Source: an uncultured delta proteobacterium (lineage in GTDB: Bacteria; Desulfobacterota; Desulfobaccia; Desulfobaccales; 0-14-0-80-60-11). From it: a stretch of DNA of 64,000 nt. Under the pieces are notes generated by a model. It ran no database searches. It was not told the DNA's origin and saw nothing but the letters and a program-made list of their open reading frames with translations. Of this stretch, positions 33,955 to 63,421 are shown piece after piece. The DNA lies in assembly GCA_963709285.1 (NCBI GenBank), contig CAVPVR010000002.1, positions 1,491 to 65,490 on the forward strand, read 5' to 3'. Each line of letters opens with the position of its first letter. Position 1 is the first letter of the stretch. The position numbers and the translations under genes were made by a program.

Positions 33955-35043
33955 CTATACCAGTGTCTGGCCTTTAGTAACTTTCAAGAGATAGCAGAAA
34001 AAGGGACCCCCCAGGAGGGCGGTGATAATTCCCACCGGCAGTTCCTGGCCATAAGGCAGGATGACCCGGGCCAGAGTGTCGGCGGCTATGAGGAGCACGG
34101 CCCCGGCCAGGCCTGCGACTGGCAGAAGGCGCCGGTGGTCAGGCCCCACCAACAGGCGCGCTACATGGGGAACAATGAGGCCCACGAAACCAATGATGCC
34201 GGACACCGCTACCGCGCCGGCGGTGATGAGGGAAGCGGCTAAAAGCAGGGTGAGGCGCACCCGGCTCACTGCCAGGCCCAGTTGCTGGGCCGGGGCGTCC
34301 CCCAGGGTGAGGAGGTTAAGTTCCCGGGAATAGAGCAAGAGAACGAGGCTGCCCACCAGAATATAGGGAAAGGCAAAGAACACGTGGGACCAGCCCCGGG
34401 CCGACAGGCTCCCCATGATCCAGAAAACGATGGTTGAGAGGCTGTCGGCGTAAAGGAACTTCACCAGACTGATAAGGGACGAGAGGAAAGCGCTGACAAT
34501 GACCCCGGCCAGGATCAGGGTGCCGTGCTGGATGCCCCCGGCCATGGCCCCTAGGGCCAAGACCAGGACCAGGGCCGCCACTGCGCCCAGGAGGGCCATC
34601 AGGGGCACCAGACCCAGGGACCCTAGAAGCACCCCGCTCAAACCCAGACTCAAGGCCAGAGAGGCCCCGAAGGCCGCGCCCGCGGCCACCCCCAGGGTAA
34701 AGGGTTCGGCCAGGGGGTTCAGCAGGATGCCTTGAAAGGCCGCACCCGCCAGGCTGAGCCCCAGCCCCACCAGGCCGGCGAGGACAATGCGGGCTATCCT
34801 AATATGGAAAATTACCGCCAGGGCCGTGGCTTCGGCCGGGTTCAGGGTATCCCCTGCGGCCCAACGCTTTACCAGGCTGAACAGGTGGCCATAACTCAAC
34901 TTATAGGGCCCCACCCCGGCGGCATAGACCGCCATAATCACCAGGAGCACGGTAAGTCCGGCCAAGAGAAGAGGATAGCTCCAGCCCCGGAGCAGCCAGG
35001 GCTGCAGGGTATGACTCTCACCGTGCGGTAAATTTTCACTCAT
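33955..35043 (-). CDS. FecCD/BtuC-family ABC transporter permease
   Basis: ORF 33955..35295; likely start ATG at 35043 (MSENLPHGESH...). Typical FecCD sequence (RIARIVLAGLVGLGLSLAGAAFQGILLNPLAEPFTLGV...GIIGFVGLIVPHVARLLVG). Confidence 0.9.
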   Translation of the reverse strand: MSENLPHGESHTLQPWLLRGWSYPLLLAGLTVLLVIMAVYAAGVGPYKLSYGHLFSLVKRWAAGDTLNPAEATALAVIFHIRIARIVLAGLVGLGLSLAGAAFQGILLNPLAEPFTLGVAAGAAFGASLALSLGLSGVLLGSLGLVPLMALLGAVAALVLVLALGAMAGGIQHGTLILAGVIVSAFLSSLISLVKFLYADSLSTIVFWIMGSLSARGWSHVFFAFPYILVGSLVLLLYSRELNLLTLGDAPAQQLGLAVSRVRLTLLLAASLITAGAVAVSGIIGFVGLIVPHVARLLVGPDHRRLLPVAGLAGAVLLIAADTLARVILPYGQELPVGIITALLGGPFFCYLLKVTKGQTLV

Positions 35044-35158
35044 GATCACCCAAGGTTTTCCCTTCCGGGGCAAGGGAATATCTGCCAGGGAAGGCACCTT
35101 CCCTGGACTTTTGACCATATCATATTGAAATGCCGTGAGGAAATACGGAAAAGCGCAG

Positions 35159-35953
35159 TTAGGCCCTGACCACCGCCAGGGATCGGCCTTTTCCCATTCC
35201 CAGCCGGCGGGCTGCATTTCCCTGGGCGCAGGCAATTTCCAGATACCCGTGGCTCCCCACCAGGGCCAGAAACTCCTTGGGGGCGGCATCGCCATAGGTG
35301 CGGGTCAGGCCCTTCAAGGTCAGACTGCCCAGGATTACCGCGTAGGTCTCCTCTCCCAGCCAAGCCATGAGGTCGCTTCCCCTGATGTTACTCACCAGGT
35401 TGCCGAAGCCATCCACATAGACAATCTCGCCCCGAACAGCCTCGGGGGTGTAGATGGATTGCGGCCAGGGAAGGGCTACGGGGTCGGAGAGCGGAGAACC
35501 GAAGGCGTCCAGGGGCGTGCCGTGGGAAAGGTACGCGGCCACGGGGGCGAAGATATCCCGGCCGTGAAAGGTGGAGGATACGGATTCCCGAAAATAATGG
35601 GGATTTTCCAGAGAAACGATGTCCGGGGCGCCGCTCTCCAGGAAAACCAGGTGAAAGAGGCCGTTGTCCGGGCCCACCCAGAACTGCCCCCGGGCTCTGG
35701 CAACCAAGGCCCGGCGCTGAGTGCCTACCCCCGGGTCCACCACCGCCAGGTGAATGGTCCTGGGTGGGAAATAGGGCGCGGCCCCAGCCAAGAGAAAGGC
35801 GCCGGCGACAATGTCCTGAGGCGGCACCTCATGGGTCAGGTCCACCAGGATGGCCTCAGGTTGTATGGACAATATCACCCCTTTCATGGCCGCCACATAG
35901 GGGTCGCGGGTGCCGAAATCACTAAGCAGCGTAATAATGGGCCGTGTGGTCAT
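35159..35953 (-). CDS. SAM hydroxide adenosyltransferase / SAM-dependent halogenase-like protein (DUF62)
   Basis: 264 aa. ITLLSDFGTRDPYVAAMKGVI...VDLTHEVPPQDI...AVVDPGVG...FHGRDIFAPVAA. Confidence 0.85.
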   Translation of the reverse strand: MTTRPIITLLSDFGTRDPYVAAMKGVILSIQPEAILVDLTHEVPPQDIVAGAFLLAGAAPYFPPRTIHLAVVDPGVGTQRRALVARARGQFWVGPDNGLFHLVFLESGAPDIVSLENPHYFRESVSSTFHGRDIFAPVAAYLSHGTPLDAFGSPLSDPVALPWPQSIYTPEAVRGEIVYVDGFGNLVSNIRGSDLMAWLGEETYAVILGSLTLKGLTRTYGDAAPKEFLALVGSHGYLEIACAQGNAARRLGMGKGRSLAVVRA

Positions 35954-36030: not shown

Positions 36031-36564
36031 TTATAACCCCTTCCTTTCAAACCAGTAAAACAGCCCCAGGGTGCCCAGAATCACCACCGGAATGACAACC
36101 CAAGGGTTCACCCCCAGGACCTGGGGCAGGGTAAGTTTGCCCAGGTTGCCCCAGGTGAGGAGCGTCTGTTTCATGAGGGGGTAGGCTTCAGCATACAGGG
36201 CGGCACCGACAATCATTCCTATAATACCCCACAGCGTTCCCCAGCGTCCCTCACCCACCGCGCCCACGGCAGTGCCGGGGCAGAAGCCGAACAGGCCCCA
36301 GCCCATGCCGAAGATGAGCCCGCCGCTAATGTTGCCCCCCAGAACCGTGGCTTTGATGGAGAGCTTGACCAGGCCCAGATCATGGAGGAAATAGACGCCC
36401 ACCATGGCCACCAGGATGCTGGACATCATGAACTTGACAATGGTCATGTCCAGGAGGCGCAGAGCGCCAAGTTGCTTATCGTAGCGCAGCACCTGGCCTC
36501 TCTGCAGGAGAAAACCGAACAGGATGCCGGTGATGAAGCCATAGAGCAGAACTGTCATGGTCAT
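36031..36564 (-). CDS. YeeE/YedE (DUF395, sulfur/selenium transport) family protein, second half-transporter gene
   Basis: ORF 36031..36780. The likely start ATG at 36564 (MTMTVLLYGFITGILFGFLLQRG) overlaps the upstream stop as ATGA. Conserved GLFGFCPGTAVG motif. Confidence 0.8.
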   Translation of the reverse strand: MTMTVLLYGFITGILFGFLLQRGQVLRYDKQLGALRLLDMTIVKFMMSSILVAMVGVYFLHDLGLVKLSIKATVLGGNISGGLIFGMGWGLFGFCPGTAVGAVGEGRWGTLWGIIGMIVGAALYAEAYPLMKQTLLTWGNLGKLTLPQVLGVNPWVVIPVVILGTLGLFYWFERKGL

Positions 36565-37079
36565 TTCCCCCTGCCATACAGGAGACGGGCTATCACCATA
36601 CCGCCCAGAAAAAAACAAATCAAGGCCACAAAACCGCTGACCGATAGCTGGAGCAGACCGCTCAGCCCATGGCCGCTGGGTCAGCCGCCGGCCAGACGCG
36701 CCCCGAACATGGCCACAGTGCCGCCCGCCAAGGCCACCACACCTCGGGTCCCCTGGTTGGGGCCGAAGCGCCCCTCCCACATGGGGGGCACGGCCTCCCA
36801 GCGGAAGTCATCAAAAAGTTTGGCTGACACGCAGGCGCCCAGTAAAATGCCCAGCACGAACATCCACTGCCAATCCACCTGCGGCAGGGTTTTGACGAAA
36901 TAGGGCATGCTGGCCACCCGCTCGGGGGTCACCAGGCTCTCCAGCATGCCGGCGGTGCGGACAAAGCTGGTGGAGGCCCCGAAAAACTTGCCACTCAGCC
37001 ACACGGAGAACACCATGAGCAGGCCGGTCAGGGCTCCGGCCAGGTAAGGGTTCCAGCCTTTTTTAGAGTTCCCGGACAT
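36561..37079 (-). CDS. YeeE/YedE family protein, first half-transporter gene, with an in-frame UGA (putative selenocysteine) at codon 133
   Basis: ORF 36681..37079 stops at TGA (36681..36683) inside ...FGARLAGG-TGA-PSGHGLSGLLQLSVSGFVALICFFLGGMVIARLLYGRGK. The same frame stays open 39 more codons to a TGA at 36561..36563, which overlaps the next gene's ATG. The TGA sits where this family has the Cys of the GGC motif. Confidence 0.7.
36639..36674 (-). promoter_or_regulatory. Putative bacterial SECIS hairpin
   Basis: mRNA GGCC-AUGG-GCUGAGC-GGUCU-GCUC(C)AGC-UAUC-GGUC. The upper stem has 7 bp with one bulged C. Apical loop GGUCU; its GG lies 22-23 nt after the UGA, resembling the E. coli fdhF SECIS apex. 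Confidence 0.5.
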
Positions 37080-37291
37080 GATTTCTCCTTATTTTTTGTG
37101 AGGAACGGCGCGCCCGGCTCGACGTAACTCTTTCCTTATTTAATATAACCAGGGATTCTGGGAGCGCCTGGGTGCCTTACCTAATTCTGCGCCAGGCAGG
37201 GAGGGCAGGCAAGGCCCACGCAGCCAAAACCAGCAGGTAGTATTTTCCTGGAAAACCTGCCCTGCCTGACCGTGGGAACCCCCTGGTCACG

Positions 37292-37696
37292 TCAGATAGT
37301 CTCAGCTGCCAGAAGGGCCTTAATTTCCTCCTGGATGCGCTCCACGGGCAGCGCCCCGGCGAAGCGGCCCCGGCCGTTCAGGTAGACCAGAGGCGGAGGA
37401 TAGGTGAGGGAACACAAGAGCTTGGTTTGGGGTAGCTCCGGCCCCCGGGGGTCCTGGAGAACATTGATGTACTCCACCCGGACCTTTCCCGGAAATTCTT
37501 TTTCCAGGGTCAGGGCCAAGGCCTGGGTTTGCATTTCCACACTGATTTTTTCAAAGGCATCGCGGGGTTGGTGCGTATGGCTGTGCCCAGGCCCATGGTC
37601 GTGGCCGTGATGATGGTCGCAGCCGCAGTCACAACCCCCGCGGCGGGCCACAGGAGCGTCATAGATGACAATTTCCACCAAATTAGTTGAACGCAT
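37292..37696 (-). CDS. Thioredoxin-fold, ArsD-like small protein with a Cys/His-rich metal-binding insert
   Basis: ORF 37292..37906; likely start ATG at 37696 behind AGGAGG. VEIVIYDAPVARRGGCDCGCDHHHGHDHGPGHSHTH... and C-terminal PPLVYLNGRGRFAGALPVERIQEEI resemble the ArsD layout. Assignment is tentative. Confidence 0.5.
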   Translation of the reverse strand: MRSTNLVEIVIYDAPVARRGGCDCGCDHHHGHDHGPGHSHTHQPRDAFEKISVEMQTQALALTLEKEFPGKVRVEYINVLQDPRGPELPQTKLLCSLTYPPPLVYLNGRGRFAGALPVERIQEEIKALLAAETI

Positions 37697-37868
37697 ATAT
37701 CCTCCTGGGGGCAAGAAGAAAGGCGCACTCCTTGCCCTAAATATCCTCGCTTGGTGAAATTTTCGCGCTAGTGGCTCAGTAACCCAAGTATTTTTGCACA
37801 AAAGATGGTTAAGGGAAGGTTTAGTTTTTTCAAATAACGTATAATAATTGGTTGAGAAGGAGGCCGTT

Positions 37869-38711
37869 ATGGAGCTCAACATTCTCCAGGCCATTGAACT
37901 GGCCATTGCCCATGAGCTGGAGGCCCGCCGCAGTTACCTGGCCCTGGCCGACGAAGCCGACGACCCAGAGCTCAGACACCTGTTACAAGAGATCGCCCAG
38001 GAGGAAGCGGGCCACGAGGCCAGTCTCAGGAGCCGGTTGCGTCTTTACGAACAAAGGATTTTACTGCGGGATACCCTGAGCCGCTACGTCAGCCCGGCCA
38101 TGACCGAGGAGATTTTGAAAAACCCGGAGACTCTCCAGTTAGGCGGCCAGCGGCGCCATGTGTCGGTGCTCTTCGCCGATATCAAGGGCTTCACCTCGCT
38201 CTCCGAGAAGATGGACCCCGCCGAAGTGGTGGAAATGCTCAATCACTATTTCACCCAGATGGTGGACCTGGTCTTTGAACACCAGGGCACCCTGGACAAG
38301 TTTCTGGGGGACGGCCTTATGGCCTTCTTTGGGGCGCCCCTCGAAGTGCCCCAGGCTGCCAGCCAGGCCGTGGCCTGCGCCATCGCCATGCAACAACGCC
38401 TCCACGCCCTGAAACAGGAGGGGGTTACCCCCATTCAGGGTCTGTGGGTGGGCGTCAACACCGGGGAGGCCATCGTCGGCAATATCGGCTCGGCCAGACG
38501 CATGGACTTTACTATCATCGGGGATGTGGTGAACGTGGCCGCCCGCCTCCTGGAGGTGGGTCGGGAGCAGGAAGCCTCCATCGTTATTGGGGAATCCACC
38601 TACCGGGAGGTGGAAGGCAATTTCACTCTGAACCCCGGGCCCTCCGTGGTTCTCAGGGGCCGCCAGGAGACCACCGTGAGTTACCTGGTGGAGTTCCCTC
38701 TCACCCCCTGA
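37869..38711 (+). CDS. Class III adenylate/guanylate cyclase with an N-terminal ferritin/rubrerythrin-like helical domain
   Basis: ORF 37848..38711; ATG at 37869 behind AGGAGG. N-terminus LQAIELAIAHELEARRSYLALA...LLQEIAQEEAGHEASL. Cyclase core VSVLFADIKGFTSLSE...FLGDGLMAFFGAP...VNVAARL. Confidence 0.8.
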   Translation: MELNILQAIELAIAHELEARRSYLALADEADDPELRHLLQEIAQEEAGHEASLRSRLRLYEQRILLRDTLSRYVSPAMTEEILKNPETLQLGGQRRHVSVLFADIKGFTSLSEKMDPAEVVEMLNHYFTQMVDLVFEHQGTLDKFLGDGLMAFFGAPLEVPQAASQAVACAIAMQQRLHALKQEGVTPIQGLWVGVNTGEAIVGNIGSARRMDFTIIGDVVNVAARLLEVGREQEASIVIGESTYREVEGNFTLNPGPSVVLRGRQETTVSYLVEFPLTP

Positions 38712-38871: not shown

Positions 38872-40102
38872 ATGGCTCTGGTAAATCCACACGGTAAAGA
38901 AAAGAAATTAAAGCCTTTGCTGCTTTCCCCGGCCGAGGTGGCCGAAGAAAAGAAGCGGGTCAAGGATCTGACTGCAGTTGTCATGACGTCCCGGGAAACG
39001 GCCGACCTCATCATGCTGGCCATCGGCGGCTTCACCCCCCTGGACGGCTTCATGGGCTCCAAGGACTGGAAGGGGGTCTGTGACAACTATCAGTTGGCGG
39101 ACGGCACCTTCTGGCCCATCCCCATCACCTTCTCCACCACCAAGGGCAAAGCCGACTCCATCAAGGAGGGTCAGGAAGTGCTGCTGGTGGACGAAGAGAC
39201 GGAAGAGCGGATGGGGACCATGGTGGTCACCGAAAAGTACACCATTGACAAGGTGCATGAGTGCAAGCAGATCTTCAGGACCGATGACATGGAGCACCCG
39301 GGGGTGCGCATGGTCATGGGTCAGGCCGAGGTCAACCTGGCGGGCACCGTCAAGGTCTGGAGCGAAGGCCCCTTTCCCAAGGCGTACCCTGGCCTTTATA
39401 TGCGGCCGGCGGAGACCCGGCGGCTGTTTGAGGAAAAGGGCTGGAACACCATCGCCGCCCTGCAGCTCAGAAACCCCATGCACCGCTCCCACGAGTATTT
39501 GGCCAAGATCGCCATCGAAGTCTGCGACGGCGGTGCTGATCCACCAGCTCCTGGGGAAACTGAAACCTGGCGACATTCCTGCCGAGGTGCGCACCGATGC
39601 CATTAATGTCCTGATGGAACACTATTTTGTTAAGGACACCGTGGTCCAGGCTGGTTACCCTCTGGATATGCGGTATGCCGGACCCCGGGAAGCGCTGTTG
39701 CACGCGGTCTTCCGTCAGAACTTCGGGTGCAGCCACCTCATCGTCGGCCGTGACCATGCCGGTGTGGGTGAGTACTACGGCCCCTTCGACGCCCAGCATA
39801 TCTTCCTGGAAATCCCCAAGAATTCCCTGGAACTCAAACCCTTGAACATCGACTGGACCTTCTATTGCCATAAGTGTGACGGCATGGCCTCCATGCGTAC
39901 CTGCCCCCATGGCAAGGATGACCGGCTCATCCTGAGCGGCACCATGCTGCGGAAGATGCTGTCCGAAGGTCTGGATGTACCTGACCACTTCAGCCGTGAT
40001 GAAGTCCTGAAAGTCCTCCGGAAATATTATGAAGGTCTGACCGAGAAAGTGGAGGTCAAGGTCCACGGTTTTGCCACCGGGGATCTCCCGGGCAAAAAGT
40101 AG
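38872..40102 (+). pseudogene. sat: Sulfate adenylyltransferase (ATP sulfurylase), with one +1 frame disruption
   Basis: ORF 38872..39606 (...[23 protein letters not shown]) continues in the frame of ORF 39080..40102 ([20 protein letters not shown]...GRDHAGVG...). There is an extra G at about 39541. RBS GGAGGA upstream. Confidence 0.93.
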
Positions 40103-40678: not shown

Positions 40679-42640
40679 ATGGAAAAAGAATTCTGTAAGT
40701 GGTCGTTCTGTGAAAAACCGCCGGTCGAGACCGTCGAGACCGATCTCCTCCTCGTAGGCGGCGGCATGGCTTGCTGCGGCGCCGCGGTGGAGGCAGCCGC
40801 TTGGGCCAAGGCAACCGGTCTTAAGGTCACCATGGTGGACAAAGCGGCGGTGGACCGTTCCGGCGCGGTGGCCATGGGTCTGTCGGCCATTAACACCTAC
40901 GTCGGCAAAGAAAACCCGGTGGATGACTACGTTAAGTACGTGCGCACCGACCTCATGGGCATCATCCGGGAAGACCTGGTGCACTCCCTGGGCTGCCACG
41001 TGGACATCTCCGTGCATGACTTTGAAGAGTGGGGCCTCCCCATCTGGAAAAAGGACAAAGAAGGCCACACCGTGGACGGCCAGGTGGCCAAAGACGAAGA
41101 GCTGCCTCTCCTGAAAGACGGGGGCCAATGCTGCCGTTCCGGCCGTTGGCAGTGCATGATTAATGGTGAGTCCTACAAGGTCATCGTCGGCGAGGCCGCC
41201 AAAAACGCCCTCGGAACCGATAACATTTACGAGCGCGTCTTCATCGTCAAACTCTTGACCGACAAGAAAGACCCCAACCGGGTGTGCGGCGCCGTCGGCT
41301 TCAGCGTCCGTGAGCACAAGGCATACGTCTTCAAGTGCAAAGCCATGATCGTGGCCTGCGGTGGCGTGGTCAACGTCTTCCGGCCTCGGTCCGTGGCGGA
41401 AGGCCAGGGCCGCGCCTGGTACCCGGTGTGGAACGCCGGCTCCACCTACGCCATGCCCGCGGAAATCGGCGCCAAGATGGTTCTCATGGAGAACCGTTTC
41501 GTCCCGGCCCGGTTTAAGGACGGTTACGGCCCCGTAGGCGCCTGGTTCTTGTTCTTCAAGGCCAAGGCCACCAACGCTTACAACGAAGATTACATGGAAA
41601 AGAACTGGGATCGGGTCAAAAAGGAATATCCCGGCTACGCCGATTCCCCCGGCACCTGCCTTCGGAACCATGCCGCCATGATCGAGATGCGGGACGGCAA
41701 AGGCCCCATCATGATGCACACCGACAAGGCCATGGCGGAACTGGCCAAGGTTCTCTCCAAAAAAGAGCTCAAGCACCTGGAAGCGGAAGCCTGGGAAGAC
41801 TTCCTGGACATGTCCATCTCCGCCGCGTGCGCTGTGGGCCTCCATGAACATGGAGCCCGACAAGGTGCCTTCTGAGATCATCCCGTCCGAGCCCTACCTG
41901 CTCGGTTCCCACGCCGGCTGCGCCGGTCTCTGGGTTTCCGGTCCCTCTAAGGGCTACCTGGGCGCCCCCGATGACTGGTTCTGGGGCTATGACCGCATGA
42001 CCACCGTCGAGGGTCTGTTCACCGCCGGTGACGGCGTTGGCGCCTCCGGGCACAAGTTCTCCTCCGGTTCCCACGCTGAGGGCCGCATGGCCGCCAAGGC
42101 TGCCTTCGCCTTCATCCTGGATCACAAGGACGACAAGCTCGAGGCCGCTCAGAACATCGACGAGGTCCTGGAACAGATCTACCTGCCCTTCGAGATCTTC
42201 GAAAAGCACAAGAACTACACCACCGCGCCGGACATCAACCCCAACTACCTCCGGCCCAAGCATGTTCAGTCCCGCTTGCAGAAGATCATGGACGAGTACG
42301 TGGGCGGCATGCGCCACCATGTACATGACCAACGAAAAAATGCTGGAACATCGCGCTGGAGCGCCTCACCATGCTGAAGGAAGACGCCCAGCACATGGCC
42401 GCGGGGGACCTCCACGAGCTCATGCGGGCCTGGGAGCAGTACCACCGCATCCTGGCCGGTGAGGCCCACCTGCGCCACATCCTCTTCCGGGAAGAGAGCC
42501 GGTACCCTGGTTACTACTACCGCTCCGACTTCCTGAGCATCGATGATAAGAAATGGAGGGTCTTCACCATTTCCCAGTACGACATGAACACCAACGAGTG
42601 GAAGTTCGAGACCGTGCCCTATAAGGAACTGGTGAAGTAA
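40679..42640 (+). pseudogene. aprA: Adenylylsulfate (APS) reductase alpha subunit, with three +1 frame disruptions
   Basis: The sequence reads in four pieces across three frames. (1) ORF 40679..41875 (DLLLVGGGMACCGAA...). (2) ORF 41844..42377 (MNMEPDKVPSEIIPSEPYLLGSHAGCAGLWVSGP...). (3) A short stretch in a third frame (ATMYMTNEKMLEH). (4) ORF 42371..42640 (ALERLTMLKEDAQ...YKELVK). The shifts are at about 41825, 42311 and 42351. Confidence 0.93.
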
Positions 42641-42758: not shown

Positions 42759-44018
42759 GTGAGCTCCGACAACGGTACGATTCTGGTTGTCGGGGGAGGC
42801 ATGAGCGGTCTGACGGCTGCCCTCGAAGCCGCCGAGTCCGGCGCCCAGGTCATCATTACGGAAAGAGAGCCGTATCTGGGCGGCCGGGTCGCTCAACTCC
42901 ACCGATACTTCCCCAAGCTCTGCCCGCCTACCTGTGGTCTGGAGATTCAATTTCGCCGCATTCGGGAAAACCCCCGGATCACCTTCTACACCATGGCGGA
43001 AGTGACCCAGGTCTCCGGCAGCGCTGGCGAGTTTGAGGTGACCGTCCAGGTCAAGCCCCGCTATGTTAATGACCGTTGCGTGGCCTGCGATGCCTGTACG
43101 GAAGCCTGCCCGGCCTGGCGGGTGAACGACTTTAACTACGGTTTGGACAAAACCAAAGCGGCCTACATCCCTTTTGACATGGCCTTTCCCCTGAAATACG
43201 TCATCGACATGGAGGCCTGCACCGGGGACTGCGGCCAAAAGTGCGCCGAGGCCTGTAAGTACGAGGCTATCGATCTCGGTATGCAGTCCCAGACCCACAC
43301 CTTCCAGGTGGGATCCATCGTCCTGGCGGGCGGTTGGGAGCTTTATGACGTCTCCAAGGTGGAAACTTTGGGCTCCGGCCAGGTGAACAACGTCATAACC
43401 AACATGCAGATGGAACGCCTGGCGGCCGCTAACGGCCCCACCGGCGGCAAGATCCAGCGGCCCAGCGACAGCCAGCCGCCCAAGAAGGTGGCCTTCGTGC
43501 AGTGCGCCGGCTCCCGGGACGAGAATCATCTGCCCTACTGTTCCTACATCTGCTGCATGGCCTCTCTGAAGCAGGTCACCTACCTCAAGGAGCAGGACCC
43601 CGAGACCGAGGCTACCGTATTTTACATTGACCTCCGCACCCCGGGCCGCTATGAGCAGTTTATGTGGAAAGTGCGGGACGAAGAGGGTATCAACCTCATC
43701 CGGGGCAAGGTGGCCAGGTTGGAGCAGCAGCCGGGCACCGACAACGTGGTGGTCACCGTGGAAGACACCGTGGGCGGTCGCAAATTGAAAGAAACCTTTG
43801 ACCTGGTGGTCCTGGCCGCCGGCATGGTGCCCTCCACCAAGAACAGCCCCTTTCCGTTGCCCCTGTCCTACACCCCGGAGGGCTTCGTCATTCCTGAGCT
43901 TCTGCCCGACGGGGTTTTTGCCGTCGCCTCAATGAAAAGCCCTCTGGATGTCATGAAGTCCAACGAAGACGCCACCGGGGCCGCCCTTAAAAGTCTCATC
44001 AGCCTGAGCAGGAGGTAG
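42759..44018 (+). CDS. qmoA: Quinone-interacting membrane-bound oxidoreductase complex subunit A (HdrA-like flavoprotein)
   Basis: 419 aa, GTG start behind AAGGAGG. ILVVGGGMSGLTAALEAAESG. Position directly after aprBA. Confidence 0.9.
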   Translation: MSSDNGTILVVGGGMSGLTAALEAAESGAQVIITEREPYLGGRVAQLHRYFPKLCPPTCGLEIQFRRIRENPRITFYTMAEVTQVSGSAGEFEVTVQVKPRYVNDRCVACDACTEACPAWRVNDFNYGLDKTKAAYIPFDMAFPLKYVIDMEACTGDCGQKCAEACKYEAIDLGMQSQTHTFQVGSIVLAGGWELYDVSKVETLGSGQVNNVITNMQMERLAAANGPTGGKIQRPSDSQPPKKVAFVQCAGSRDENHLPYCSYICCMASLKQVTYLKEQDPETEATVFYIDLRTPGRYEQFMWKVRDEEGINLIRGKVARLEQQPGTDNVVVTVEDTVGGRKLKETFDLVVLAAGMVPSTKNSPFPLPLSYTPEGFVIPELLPDGVFAVASMKSPLDVMKSNEDATGAALKSLISLSRR

Positions 44019-44020
44019 CC

Positions 44021-46197
44021 ATGGAAGAACGGACATACGCGGCGTATTTGTGCAAGGGCTGTGGCATCGGGGAGGTCTTAAATTTCGCCGACCTGAGCAA
44101 GGTGGCGACCCGGGAGGCCAAACTCAAGAATGTCAAGGAGCATGACGTTCTGTGCAGTCCCGAAGGTCTGGAGATGATCAAGCAGGATATCGCCGACGAG
44201 GGGGTCAACTGCATCCTCATCGCCGCCTGCTCTCCCCGGGTGAAGTTCGAGGAGTTCGACTTCCCCGGTTGCATCGTAGAGCGGGTCGGCCTCCGGGAAC
44301 TCGTGGCCTGGACTCAGGATCCCGAAGACAAGGAAACCCAGCCCCTGGCGGAAGACTATATCCGCATGTATGGGGCCAAGATCAAGAAAGCGGAACTCCC
44401 CGAGCCCTTCCAGTACGAGGAAGAACTCAGCAAGACCATCCTGGTCATCGGCGGCGGCACGGCTGGCCTCTCTGCGGCCCTCTTTGCCGCCCGGCACGAC
44501 TACCAGGTGGTCCTGGTGGAAAAAGAAGCGGAACTTGGCGGCTACGGCGCCAAACTGCACCGTTCCACCCCCACCATCTATCCTTATACCCAGCTCCAGG
44601 AGCCTCCAGTCCTGGCCAAAATCAAGGAAGTGGAGGCCGAGCCCAACGTCCGGGTGCTCACCCAGACCCAGGTGGTAAAAATGGAAGGCCAGCCCGGTCT
44701 TCTGGACGTCACCGTCAACACCAACGGCTCCGAAGAGACCTTTCGCATCGGCACCGTGGTTATGGCTGCCGGCTGGCAGCCTTACGACGCCACCAAACTT
44801 GAAAAATTCGGCTACGGCACTTCGCCGGACATCATCACCAGCATTCAGATGGAGGAGATGGCCAAGAGCGGCAAGATCGTGCGCCCCTCGGACGGGAAGG
44901 CCCCCGAAGCTGTGGCCTTCATCCTCTGCGCCGGTCAGCGCGACCCGGATCACCTGCCATACTGTTCCGATATTTGCTGCGCCTCGTCCGTGAAGCAAGC
45001 CCTCTACGTGCGGCAGGCCAATCCCAATGCCGCAGCCATGATCCTCTATAAGGACATCCGCATTCCAGGTCAACTGGAGCTGTTCTATAAAGAGGCCCAG
45101 AGCGACCCGGGACTGATGCTTACCAAGGCCGAAGTCACCGGGGTGGAACCGGCCCCCGGGGCTAAGCTTAAAGTCACAGCCAAGGACACTCTCCTGGGTG
45201 AAAACATCGCCCTCGAGGCGGACCTGGTGGTCCTGGCCACCGGCATGGTCCCAGTTACGGCGGACGACCCCGTGCTCCAACTGGAATACCGCCAGGGTCC
45301 CGGCCTGCCGGACCTTGAGCTGTTTAACGGCTTTGCCGACTCCAACTTCATCTGTTTTCCTTATGAAACCCGCCGAACCGGCATCTATGCCGCCGGCTGG
45401 CGTGCGCCAGCCCATGGGCATGGCCATGGCCATGGATGACGGCGTGGGTGCAGCCCTGAAAGCCATCCAGGCGATAGAGCATAACGCCGTGGGCATGGCG
45501 GTCCATCCCCGGGCCTGGGATGAAACCTTCCCGGACCCCATCATGCAGCGCTGCACCCAGTGTAAACGCTGCACCGAGGAATGCCCCTTCGGCGCCATCG
45601 ATGAAGACGAGAAGGGCACGCCCTTCTTCAAGATCAACCGCTGCCGCCGCTGCGGCACCTGCATGGGGGCCTGCCCGGAGCGCATCGTCAACTTCAAGGA
45701 CTTTAGCGTGGACATTATGGGTTCCATGCTCAAGGCCCTGGACGTGCCCACCGAGGACGATATGGAAGACGAAGAAGAGGAAGTTCCCCTCCGCCTCCTC
45801 GGTTTGGTGTGCGAAAACGACGCCTATCCGGCCCTGGACGCCGCGGCTCTGAACAAGCTGAAACTCAACCCGGCGGTTCGCTTCGTGCCGTTGCGCTGCA
45901 TGGGTTCCTTCAACCTGGTGTGGGTCTCCGACGCTTTTTCCCGGGGCGTGGACGGCATGCTCCTCCTGGGCTGTAAGTACGGTGACGATTATCAGTGCCA
46001 CTTCGCCAAGGGCAGCGAGCTCGTGCGCCTACCGGCTCACCAAGTTGTCGGAAACCCTGGACAAGCTGGGTCTGGAAGCAGACCGGGTGCAACAGATTCA
46101 AGTGGCCATCTCTGAGTTCGACCAGCTCCCGCAAGTTGTCGAAGATTTCGTGGTGCGGCTCAAAGAGATCGGTCCTAACCCCTTTAAAGGCTTGTAG
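44021..46197 (+). pseudogene. qmoB: Qmo complex subunit B (HdrA-like flavoprotein plus 4Fe-4S and MvhD-like C-terminus), with two +1 frame disruptions
   Basis: ORF 44021..45439 runs to ...TGIYAAG. It continues in the frame of ORF 45198..46115 (VRQPMGMAMAMDDGVGAALKAI...CTQCKRCTEECP...), then in the frame of ORF 45982..46197 (CAYRLTKLSETLDKLGLEADRV...). The shifts are at about 45399 and 46023. Confidence 0.9.
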
Positions 46198-46209
46198 GAG
46201 GTGTGATCC

Positions 46210-47368
46210 ATGGCTGGCGAAACTCTTATTAAACCGGATCTGCAATTCGTCAAGCGGATCGTCGCCGCCGGGGGGGACACCGCCAAGAAGTGTTACCAGT
46301 GCGACACCTGCGACGTGGTGTGCAACCTGAGCCCCGACGAAAGACCTTTTCCCCGGAAAGAGATGCTCATGGCCCAGTGGGGTCTGACAGACGTCCTCAA
46401 GGACCCGGACATCTGGCTGTGCCACGCGTGCAGCGACTGTACCGTGCATTGCCCCCGGGGGGCCAAGCCCGGGGAGGTGCTGGGGGTCTTGCGGCAGATG
46501 TGCATCGAAAAATACGCCTTCCCGTCTATCCTGGCCCGCATGGTGGGGGACATCAAGTTCCTGCCCGTCCTCATCGCCTATGCCCGTGGTGCTTCTCCTG
46601 GTGTGGCTGTTTGGCATGGGCTTCCTCGGAATCAAGGTGGCGGGAGGCATGGTCCATAAAGGCATCGCCCTTCCTGAAGGACCGGTGATCTACTCCAAGC
46701 TGTTCCCCACCCTGTGGGCCATTGACGCTATCTTTGTACCAGCGTTCTTCTTCGCCGTCGGGGTCCTCGGTCTTGGGGTCATGAGATTCTGGAAGGACCT
46801 CAACGAAGCCAACCCCTGGAAGGTGAAGCTCCATGGCAATCTCATCGGCAACCTGGTGGCGGTGGTCCAGGACATCCTGTGGCACAACCGCTTTCGGGAA
46901 TGTGAAACGACCTTTGGGCGGGCGCTGAACCACCTCTTGCTGGTCTTCGGGTTCATCTTCCTGGCCGTGGTCACTGGCTGGGCCTTTTTAAAAGAGTGGG
47001 TCTTACACCAGGATTCTCCGTACTTTTTCTTTTCGCCCATCAAGCTCCTGGCCATGGTGGGCACCGCCGCCTTGCTCTATGGCATCTGGCAGATCTACCA
47101 GGCCCGCCAGGAAAATGCGGAGAAAGCCGGTTACGGCACCTACTACGACTGGCAGCTCATCTATCTCATCATGGCCGTGGGCTTCACCGGACTGGGCTCC
47201 TGGGTCTTCCGGCTCCTGGGCTCGACCACCCTGGCCTACCCCACCTACTTCGTGCACCTGGTGTCGATCTTTTGTCTCTTCTTTTATGCGCCGTACACCA
47301 AGATCGCCCACCTGGTTTACCGCACCGTGGCCATGCTGTATGCCCGCATGGCGGACCGGGGTTTTTAA
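46210..47368 (+). pseudogene. qmoC: Qmo complex subunit C (HdrC-like Fe-S domain fused to an HdrE/NarI-like membrane cytochrome b), with one +1 frame disruption
   Basis: ORF 46210..46659 (CYQCDTCDVVCN...CHACSDCTVHCP...FLPVLIA) continues in the frame of ORF 46580..47368 (MPVVLLLVWLFGMGFL...). There is an extra T at about 46579. AGGAGG RBS. Confidence 0.9.
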
Positions 47369-62484: not shown

Positions 62485-63421
62485 CTTAGTGCTTATCCGT
62501 AAATAACTTGACATTTATCAAATAATATGGCATGCATATCCATAAAAAAGCTCAACGGAGGTGCGCATGCCAAGGTTGCCGTCATGGGCTGTTTCCGATG
62601 CTTTTTGGCAGCGTGTGGAGCCACTCTTACCGCAACCGACCAGGGACCCGAACAAATCTTATATCCGGAAAAAAGGTGGCGGCAGAAAGCCGTTGGATTA
62701 TCGCAAGGTATTTGAAGGTATTGTTTATGTTCTCCGCACCGGTTGTCAATGGAAGGCTCTCCCCAAAGAGATATATGGTAGCCCCAGTTCCATCCATGCC
62801 TACTTTCGGCAGTGGGAAAAGGCCGGGGTATTTCTGGCCATCTGGCGAGCTGGATTGGCGGAATACGATGAAATGGAGGGCATCTCCTGGCTGTGGCAAA
62901 GTATTGATAGCGCCATGACCAAAGCGCCTTTGGCACGAGAGGCGGTTGGTCCGAGCCCGACGGACAGGGGGAAAAAAAGGAAGCAAACGCCACGTGCTGG
63001 TGGAAGAGCGTGGCGTCCCTCTGTCGATCGTCGTCACCGGGGCGAATAGACATGATGTAACTCAACTGGAAATCGTCTTGGATAGCATGGTCATTCAACG
63101 ACCAGAACCTACAGCAGACCAACCTCAGCACCTTTGCGCCGACAAAGGCTATGACGGTAAACCTGCATACCAAAGCATAGTCGACCGGGATTATATCCCC
63201 CACGTTCGGCGCCGCGGCGAGGAAATCGAGGCGAAAAAAACTGTTCCCGGCTACCGTGCTCGCCGCTGGATCGTAGAAGCTTGCAATTCATGGTTTAACA
63301 GGTTTCGCAAGATCCTGGTTCGTTATGAAAAAACCCTTTCCAGCTATATCGCCTTGCTTCATTTAGCAGCAGCCATAATCTGCTGGCGAAAAGTTGGAGT
63401 TATTTACGGATAAGCACTAAG
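62485..63421 (+). mobile_element. IS5-family insertion sequence (IS427/IS1031-like group), 937 bp
   Basis: Perfect 24-bp terminal inverted repeats: CTTAGTGCTTATCCGTAAATAACT at 62485..62508 and its reverse complement at 63398..63421. They enclose a two-frame DDE transposase. Confidence 0.85.
62567..63413 (+). CDS. IS5-family DDE transposase in two overlapping frames joined at an A7 run
   Basis: orfA (ORF 62561..63049, ATG at 62567 behind GGAGG: ...YVLRTGCQWKALPKE...PSPTDRGKK). orfB (ORF 62946..63413: GSKRHVLVEERGVPLSIVVTGANRHD...LCADKGYDG...RWIVEACNSWFNRFRKILVRYEK). A7 at 62972..62978. Confidence 0.85.

Follow-up and report, generated by a model that had tools for sequence, protein, structure and literature searches.

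A probable selenocysteine codon in one subunit gene of a split YeeE/YedE-type transporter from an uncultured delta proteobacterium

The stretch of 64,000 nucleotides (nt) analysed here, referred to below as the window, corresponds to positions 1,491 to 65,490 (forward strand) of contig CAVPVR010000002.1 in assembly GCA_963709285.1, from an uncultured delta proteobacterium of the order Desulfobaccales (Desulfobacterota). It contains two adjacent genes for half-size membrane proteins of the YeeE/YedE family, and the reading frame of the first one is interrupted by a TGA. The most probable interpretation, to which we assign a probability of about 0.88, is that this UGA is a selenocysteine (Sec) codon, so that the two translationally coupled genes would encode a split YeeE/YedE-type transporter with a selenoprotein as its first subunit. 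A preliminary description, made from the letters of the window alone, had already proposed the incorporation of Sec at this position, and the comparative data presented here support that proposal.

In-frame TGA and its Cys counterparts among homologues

The first gene of the pair, called here the Sec-type gene, opens with an ATG at 37079..37077 of the window (minus strand), as read directly from the sequence; the other elements of the locus are listed in Table 1. In the preliminary description a TGA had been placed within the motif FGARLAGG-TGA-PSGHGLSG, and this frame was confirmed: the TGA is preceded by ...AMFGARLAGG and followed by 39 codons, PSGHGLSGLLQLSVSGFVALICFFLGGMVIARLLYGRGK, up to a terminal TGA (36563..36561). 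The latter overlaps the ATG of the partner gene (36564..36562), so that the ATGA arrangement with a second half-transporter gene, also pointed out before, was found as described. Read-through of the in-frame TGA would add one further transmembrane segment to the product. Both products matched the Pfam family PF04143 (Sulf_transp) above its gathering score of 27 bits, the Sec-type product over profile positions 174-310 (85.9 bits, 4.7e-24) and that of the partner over positions 18-149 (57.4 bits, 2.3e-15). When the neighbouring genes of 89 loci were clustered, the partner half-gene was found downstream in 86 of them.

Table 1. Features of the half-transporter locus (positions are those of the window)
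Feature	Position	Strand	Remarks
Sec-type half-transporter gene	36561..37079 (final TGA stop included)	minus	172 codons, U133 as candidate Sec; counterpart of the C-terminal YeeE half, PmpA-like
Shine-Dalgarno-like AAGGAG	37085..37090	minus	5-nt spacer to the ATG; direct sequence reading
In-frame TGA, candidate Sec codon 133	36681..36683	minus	motif GG-U-PSG; opposite the invariant Cys of homologues
SECIS upper hairpin	36646..36667	minus	8 base pairs, one bulged C, apical loop GGUCU (36655..36659)
Possible extended lower SECIS stem	36632..36682	minus	columns 2-13 with 42-52; poorly supported, not relied on
Partner half-transporter gene	36031..36564	minus	177 amino acids, MTMTVLLYGF...; counterpart of the N-terminal YeeE half, PmpB-like; Cys95 in GFCPG

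Alignment with 13 full-length homologues of 171-176 amino acids placed an invariant Cys opposite the TGA in all of them, within the motif GCPSGHGLSG, and the 39-codon tail aligned without gaps with their C-terminal segment, which in the Cys homologues constitutes the last transmembrane helix. A scan of one genome per species, a set in which the source genome itself was not represented, yielded 16 related loci in metagenome-assembled genomes (MAGs) labelled as Desulfobacterales, Desulfovibrionales, Desulfonatronospira, Trichloromonas, Desulfomonilaceae, Thermodesulfobacteriota and Deltaproteobacteria. Fifteen of these loci matched a motif search, and in all 15 the codon was TGA, with PSGHG(L/I)S... 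coming after it; the remaining locus (L019, 44% identity) gave no match to the motif and was left out. The set was then composed of species-representative loci and metagenome loci, 80 of which were added by a metagenome scan. Over the 88 usable loci, a sample biased towards relatives of the Sec query, the codon at the Sec position was TGA in 63 cases, TGC in 17 and TGT in 8. Sec/Cys pairs among orthologues, which the preliminary description had suggested looking for, are abundant in this set (63 TGA against 25 TGC or TGT loci), and the 25 Cys-encoding loci agree with the 13 full-length homologues in placing the TGA at a conserved Cys of the family, in line with that description.

The peptide that follows the codon, PSGHGLSG..LQL..SG..CFF.GG..AR..YG, was kept in every motif-matching locus, in TGA and Cys forms alike, and conservation of the tail at the amino acid level was maintained among loci of 53-85% identity. 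In a rough tree built by neighbour joining, Sec and Cys forms were intermixed, and parsimony required at least 7 changes between them; such interleaving is the usual pattern of selenoprotein families.

With respect to the authenticity of the TGA, the same gene with the identical codon was present in three separate metagenome assemblies from the Joint Genome Institute (JGI), and TGA was also found at the homologous codon in 60 further diverged loci. Within the window, TGA is the terminator of 10 of the 25 Pfam-supported genes, and therefore the codon is not reassigned genome-wide. Public databases hold the gene as a hypothetical protein of 132 amino acids. Ten database homologues (82-100% identity) all end exactly at G132, nine of them with a length of 132 amino acids and one with 145, the latter having a longer called N-terminus, and the public gene calls for the related loci (L004-L099) systematically cut the Sec-type subunit to a 132-amino-acid "hypothetical protein".

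The hairpin downstream of the UGA

Downstream of the UGA the transcript can fold into a hairpin with the sequence GGCUGAGC-GGUCU-GCUC(C)CAGCU. With the U of the UGA taken as position 1, this structure covers positions 17-38, with 17-24 paired to 30-38 and one C bulged, at a spacing of 21 nt; the GG of the loop is at 25-26, that is, 22-23 nt past the A of the UGA, where it had been located in the preliminary description. In the model proposed for the bacterial Sec insertion sequence (SECIS), the loop has 3-9 nt with a G within its first two positions, the upper stem has 4-16 base pairs, the spacing is 16-37 nt and the minimum free energy (MFE) is -7.5 kcal/mol or lower (PMC13188914). Comparison with such a model had also been suggested beforehand, and the window hairpin agrees with it in all these features, with a 5-nt loop, an 8-base-pair stem with one bulge, 21 nt of spacing and an energy of -10.2 kcal/mol. 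When the codons of the encoded peptide were resampled synonymously 2000 times, just 2.8% of the versions gave an equally stable hairpin; the hairpin energy in a single sequence is nevertheless weak evidence, and the case rests on comparative data.

Over 15 diverged sequences, 98.3% of the cells of the upper helix were paired, and three pairs showed double-sided changes (G-C to A-U, C-G to U-A and G-C to C-G), all at synonymous sites. As a control, the 3' partners were shifted by 1 to 3 columns, which brought pairing down to 25-50%. The contrast between the two forms of the gene points in the same direction: of the 8 pairs, an average of 7.84 were formed in the 63 TGA loci, versus 5.16 in the 25 Cys loci, the mean energy of the hairpin being -10.9 kcal/mol in the former and -6.8 kcal/mol in the latter. 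The Gly codon in the loop was GGU in 59 of the 63 TGA loci, while it was variable (GGU, GGG, GGC or GGA) in the Cys loci. Since the hairpin is kept in TGA loci and not in Cys loci encoding a near-identical peptide, the structure is maintained specifically where the UGA needs decoding. As for the possible extension of the stem (Table 1), the whole structure including it has an MFE of -21.0 kcal/mol, with 78.7% of the cells of the lower stem paired and no double-sided change.

The hairpin resembles the SECIS element of Escherichia coli fdhF, which likewise lies inside the coding region, shortly after the UGA, and has an apical loop starting with GGU and a single-base bulge in its stem. The GG of the fdhF loop is found at about +22/+23, whereas in the window it is at +25/+26, one codon further downstream, and the bulge is formed by a 3'-side C instead of a 5'-side U.

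Alternative readings of the UGA

The public gene callers, which give proteins of exactly 132 amino acids, treat the TGA as a true stop, and this codon is indeed a normal terminator elsewhere in the window. The gene would then yield a truncated product, with the 39-codon tail being untranslated or constituting a separate micro-open reading frame. We regard this as highly unlikely, given that the product would be devoid of the essential Cys-equivalent residue and of the final helix, that the peptide of the tail is preserved among loci sharing 53-85% identity and collinear with the last transmembrane helix of the Cys homologues while having neither a start codon nor a Shine-Dalgarno sequence to open it, and that the structure-specific hairpin is retained in TGA genes only. 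The frameshifts present in essential genes of the window (one due to an extra G near 39531 in sat, and one in aprA) reveal an imperfect assembly, and on these grounds the TGA could be taken for an error of sequencing or assembly, or else for a TGC or TGT codon mutated recently in the course of pseudogenisation. However, the other errors in the window are indels and not substitutions, the same sequence with its TGA was assembled independently three times at JGI, and the 60 further diverged loci, obtained from many samples, share the codon, all of which makes this explanation extremely improbable.

Low-level misreading of UGA as Cys or Trp is known in bacteria, so read-through could take place independently of selenium, either by near-cognate decoding with one of these amino acids or by a SECIS-independent suppression, with the hairpin acting as a pause or stimulator, for instance as part of a selenium-independent throttle on expression. 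That the Sec machinery was not observed within the 64-kb window speaks for such a mechanism. The hairpin nonetheless has the features of those recognised by SelB (a 5-nt loop opened by GGU, a spacing of 21 nt and a bulged stem), the UGA occupies a functional Cys position, which is a hallmark of Sec/Cys pairs, and genome analyses of selenium-utilisation traits have already included this family among the selenoproteins. Selenium-free read-through is therefore considered very unlikely.

Several results weigh against the Sec interpretation or against a precise functional assignment of the pair. Neither selA, selB and selD nor a tRNA-Sec (selC) was found within the window (ARAGORN, Rfam and Pfam scans of 40 further open reading frames, ORFs), and the capacity of the organism to decode Sec is inferred only. 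The residual doubt on the Sec reading derives from this unseen machinery and from the fact that selenium incorporation is a prediction from sequence. The scan of the whole window with Rfam at gathering scores returned two tRNAs only, with no SECIS family at threshold, and in a dinucleotide shuffle of a 71-nt stretch the folding was not significant (z = -0.73). The indel errors in the assembly, such as that in sat, count in the same sense, though independent contigs share the TGA. As for the family models, the scores obtained with the NCBIfam TsuA entries NF052577 and NF041049 (56.5 and 34.7 bits) were below their cut-offs of 400 and 645, and so were those with the YedE/FdhT entries NF033796 (26.7 bits, cut-off 350) and TIGR04112 (20.6 bits, cut-off 200). 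Finally, thiosulfate is uncertain as a substrate, because the residue equivalent to C22 of Spirochaeta thermophila YeeE is Leu and because the adjacent genes are otherwise assigned, with no recurrent third gene.

Family placement, genomic context and possible role of the Sec-type subunit

A sequence search against the PDB aligned residues 66-170 of the Sec-type subunit to residues 236-330 of S. thermophila YeeE/TsuA (6LEO, 8J4C), with U133 opposite C293, and the partner to residues 4-178, with C95 opposite C91 and L26 opposite C22. C293 of the S. thermophila protein is located in a periplasmic indentation and makes direct contact with the thiosulfate bound at "position I", while C91 is at the centre of the hourglass; C91 and C293 are essential and C22 is dispensable in that protein (PMC7449682). 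The window pair shares the fold family of YeeE/TsuA (6LEO; E. coli YeeE), with U133 and C95 of the partner corresponding to the two essential Cys residues. It differs in that the 330-350 residues of TsuA form one polypeptide chain and the window encodes two (172 and 177 amino acids) in swapped order, the C-terminal half coming first, as well as in the Leu at the C22 position and the presence of Sec instead of Cys at that of C293. Assignment as a TsuA equivalog was rejected on the basis of the scores below cut-off, Leu26 and the two polypeptides. No TusA/TsuB/YeeD-like neighbour was recognised beside the pair and no third gene recurred over the 89 loci, no TusA/YeeD profile having been run.

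Short YeeE pairs have been described in Serratia as PmpA/PmpB, with PmpA matching the C-terminal half and bearing a C293-type Cys, and PmpB matching the N-terminal half and bearing one of the C91 type; the two are proposed to associate as a heterodimer (Li et al., 2024; PMC11582611). Gene adjacency, half-to-half logic and gene order are the same in the window pair; on the other hand, PmpA and PmpB are around 130 amino acids long, with 4 transmembrane helices each, compared with the 172 and 177 amino acids of the window subunits, the alignment of the partner half extends to residue 178 of S. thermophila YeeE, and PmpA has no described Sec. Comparative genomics has led to the proposal that YedE proteins are linked to selenium (PMC5322559). 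They belong to a common superfamily with the window gene and have the conserved Cys at the same motif, but membership in this YedE/FdhT selenium-metabolism subfamily, to which the preliminary description had implied a tie, was rejected, since the scores with NF033796 and TIGR04112 fell below their cut-offs. In addition, selD and yedF were not recognised among the window genes scanned, and the loci have no recurrent third neighbour.

Whether a Sec-containing member of the family was already catalogued had been left as a question in the preliminary description, and the answer is that it was. The "YeeE/YedE family" appears, with counts 5 and 5, in the selenoprotein list of Peng et al. (2016, supplementary file 4), and a review from 2022 lists "YeeE/YedE family protein, pfam04143, WP_012471001.1" as a selenoprotein. 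The family is also included in a review from 2026, and its Sec motif is given as GUxSG in PMC13188914. YeeE/YedE was not found in the main texts of Zhang and Gladyshev (2008) and Peng et al. (2016), the family being present in the supplement of the latter and in the two reviews. The catalogued proteins and the window gene are alike in their Pfam family, in the Sec motif (G-G-U-P-S-G in the window) and in having a single Sec in place of the conserved Cys, and they come from the same delta-proteobacteria/Desulfobacterota group, as far as the name of the example and the present loci indicate. The window gene is a newly recognised, mis-annotated member of this already catalogued selenoprotein family, and so no new category is opened. 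The catalogues come without SECIS analysis, structural mapping or abundance data, all three of which are provided here: the covariation of the SECIS-like hairpin along with the contrast between Sec and Cys forms, the location of Sec on the thiosulfate-contacting C293 of a solved structure, and the finding that TGA forms are numerous among relatives in Desulfobacterota metagenomes (63/88, with the bias towards relatives of the Sec query already indicated). The recognition of the Sec subunit as the PmpA-like half of a split pair is also contributed by the present analysis.

Regarding the genomic context, the pair is followed downstream by a SAM_HAT (DUF62-type) gene and by FecCD/ABC transporter genes. 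The longest FecCD ORF (33955-35295, minus strand, 446 amino acids) overlaps the SAM_HAT gene upstream of it (35159-35953, minus strand) by about 137 nt; its true start is probably internal, because the JGI call of the same gene (L001) has 387 amino acids. Upstream of the pair there is a gene for a His/Cys-rich protein of 134 amino acids (37292-37702, minus strand) with the N-terminal stretch CDCGCDHHHGHDHGPGHSHTH, for which no match was obtained in Pfam or NCBIfam. This gene also precedes the Sec-type pair in 7 close loci, and its product may act as a partner that binds metals or chalcogens. On the plus strand, a gene located between the pair and sat (37848-38711), kept in 6 close relatives, encodes a rubrerythrin-like N-terminal domain fused to an adenylate/guanylate cyclase domain. 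From 38.9 kb onwards, sat, aprB, aprA and a QmoA-like gene follow on the strand opposite to the pair. The clustering over 89 loci indicated that the partner half-gene alone is conserved, the His-rich and rubrerythrin-cyclase genes being limited to the closest relatives. For this reason, the closeness to the sulfate-activation genes is positional and not functional evidence, and a functional link to sat/aprBA/qmo, the tie implied by the preliminary description, was dropped in the absence of any conserved third gene.

Other observations concern the quality of the window and its remaining genes. The single-base insertions mentioned in the preliminary description do occur: sat (38872..40102, plus strand) is split by a +1 frameshift, with an extra G near 39531-39533, inside the segment 39525-39540 (...GTC TGC GAC GGC G/GTG CTG ATC..., the slash marking the break), and aprA changes reading frame at about 41844-41875. 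The most likely origin of these frameshifts is indel errors of the assembly, the genes affected being essential ones in a sulfate reducer. In the region where qmoB would be expected (44078-46665), between the QmoA-like gene (42759..44018) and the feature at 46580..47368, there is no long ORF on the plus strand and a crude gene caller chose antisense ORFs, which suggests further assembly frameshifts. Fragments of an IS4/IS5-type transposase are found at 62561-63413 (plus strand), with DUF4096 at 62561..63049 and an overlapping second ORF at 62946..63413 that may reflect a programmed or erroneous frameshift. A crude scan of other TGA-joined ORF pairs in the window, noisy at 57% GC, gave no further convincing selenoprotein candidate.

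By analogy with the bacterial Sec pathway, the UGA at codon 133 would be decoded as Sec with the participation of the GGU-loop hairpin 21 nt downstream, which would recruit SelB with Sec-tRNA(Sec). Read-through would complete the last transmembrane helix and bring the ribosome up to the start of the partner gene at the ATGA junction, the observed overlap being consistent with coupling. Homology suggests that the subunits could assemble as a heterodimeric hourglass, with U133 at the position of C293 and C95 at the central position of C91. The pair would most likely import thiosulfate or another sulfane-sulfur, or possibly selenium, species along a relay from Sec to Cys, in which the selenol, being more nucleophilic and of low pKa, would favour either the capture of the substrate or its hand-over. 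As a more speculative proposal, which we consider rather unlikely, the selenol at the outward-facing capture site could allow transport via a covalent Se-S or Se-Se intermediate, relayed from the Sec of the first subunit to the Cys of the second, so that sulfane sulfur or selenium would be imported instead of thiosulfate being passed along hydrogen bonds; equally tentative is that the Sec form may prevail in sulfate- and metal-reducing Desulfobacterota, hidden as fragments of 132 amino acids.

In terms of annotation, the interpretation of the UGA as a Sec codon would replace a hypothetical protein of 132 amino acids by one selenoprotein of 172, and the same would apply to dozens of metagenome and MAG entries, affecting the selenoproteome counts of Desulfobacterota. 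The presence of Sec at the position of C293 would also be a modest but useful pointer to the chemically active residue in the transport pathway, and the natural Sec/Cys pair would offer material for the study of substrate handling by YeeE-type transporters.

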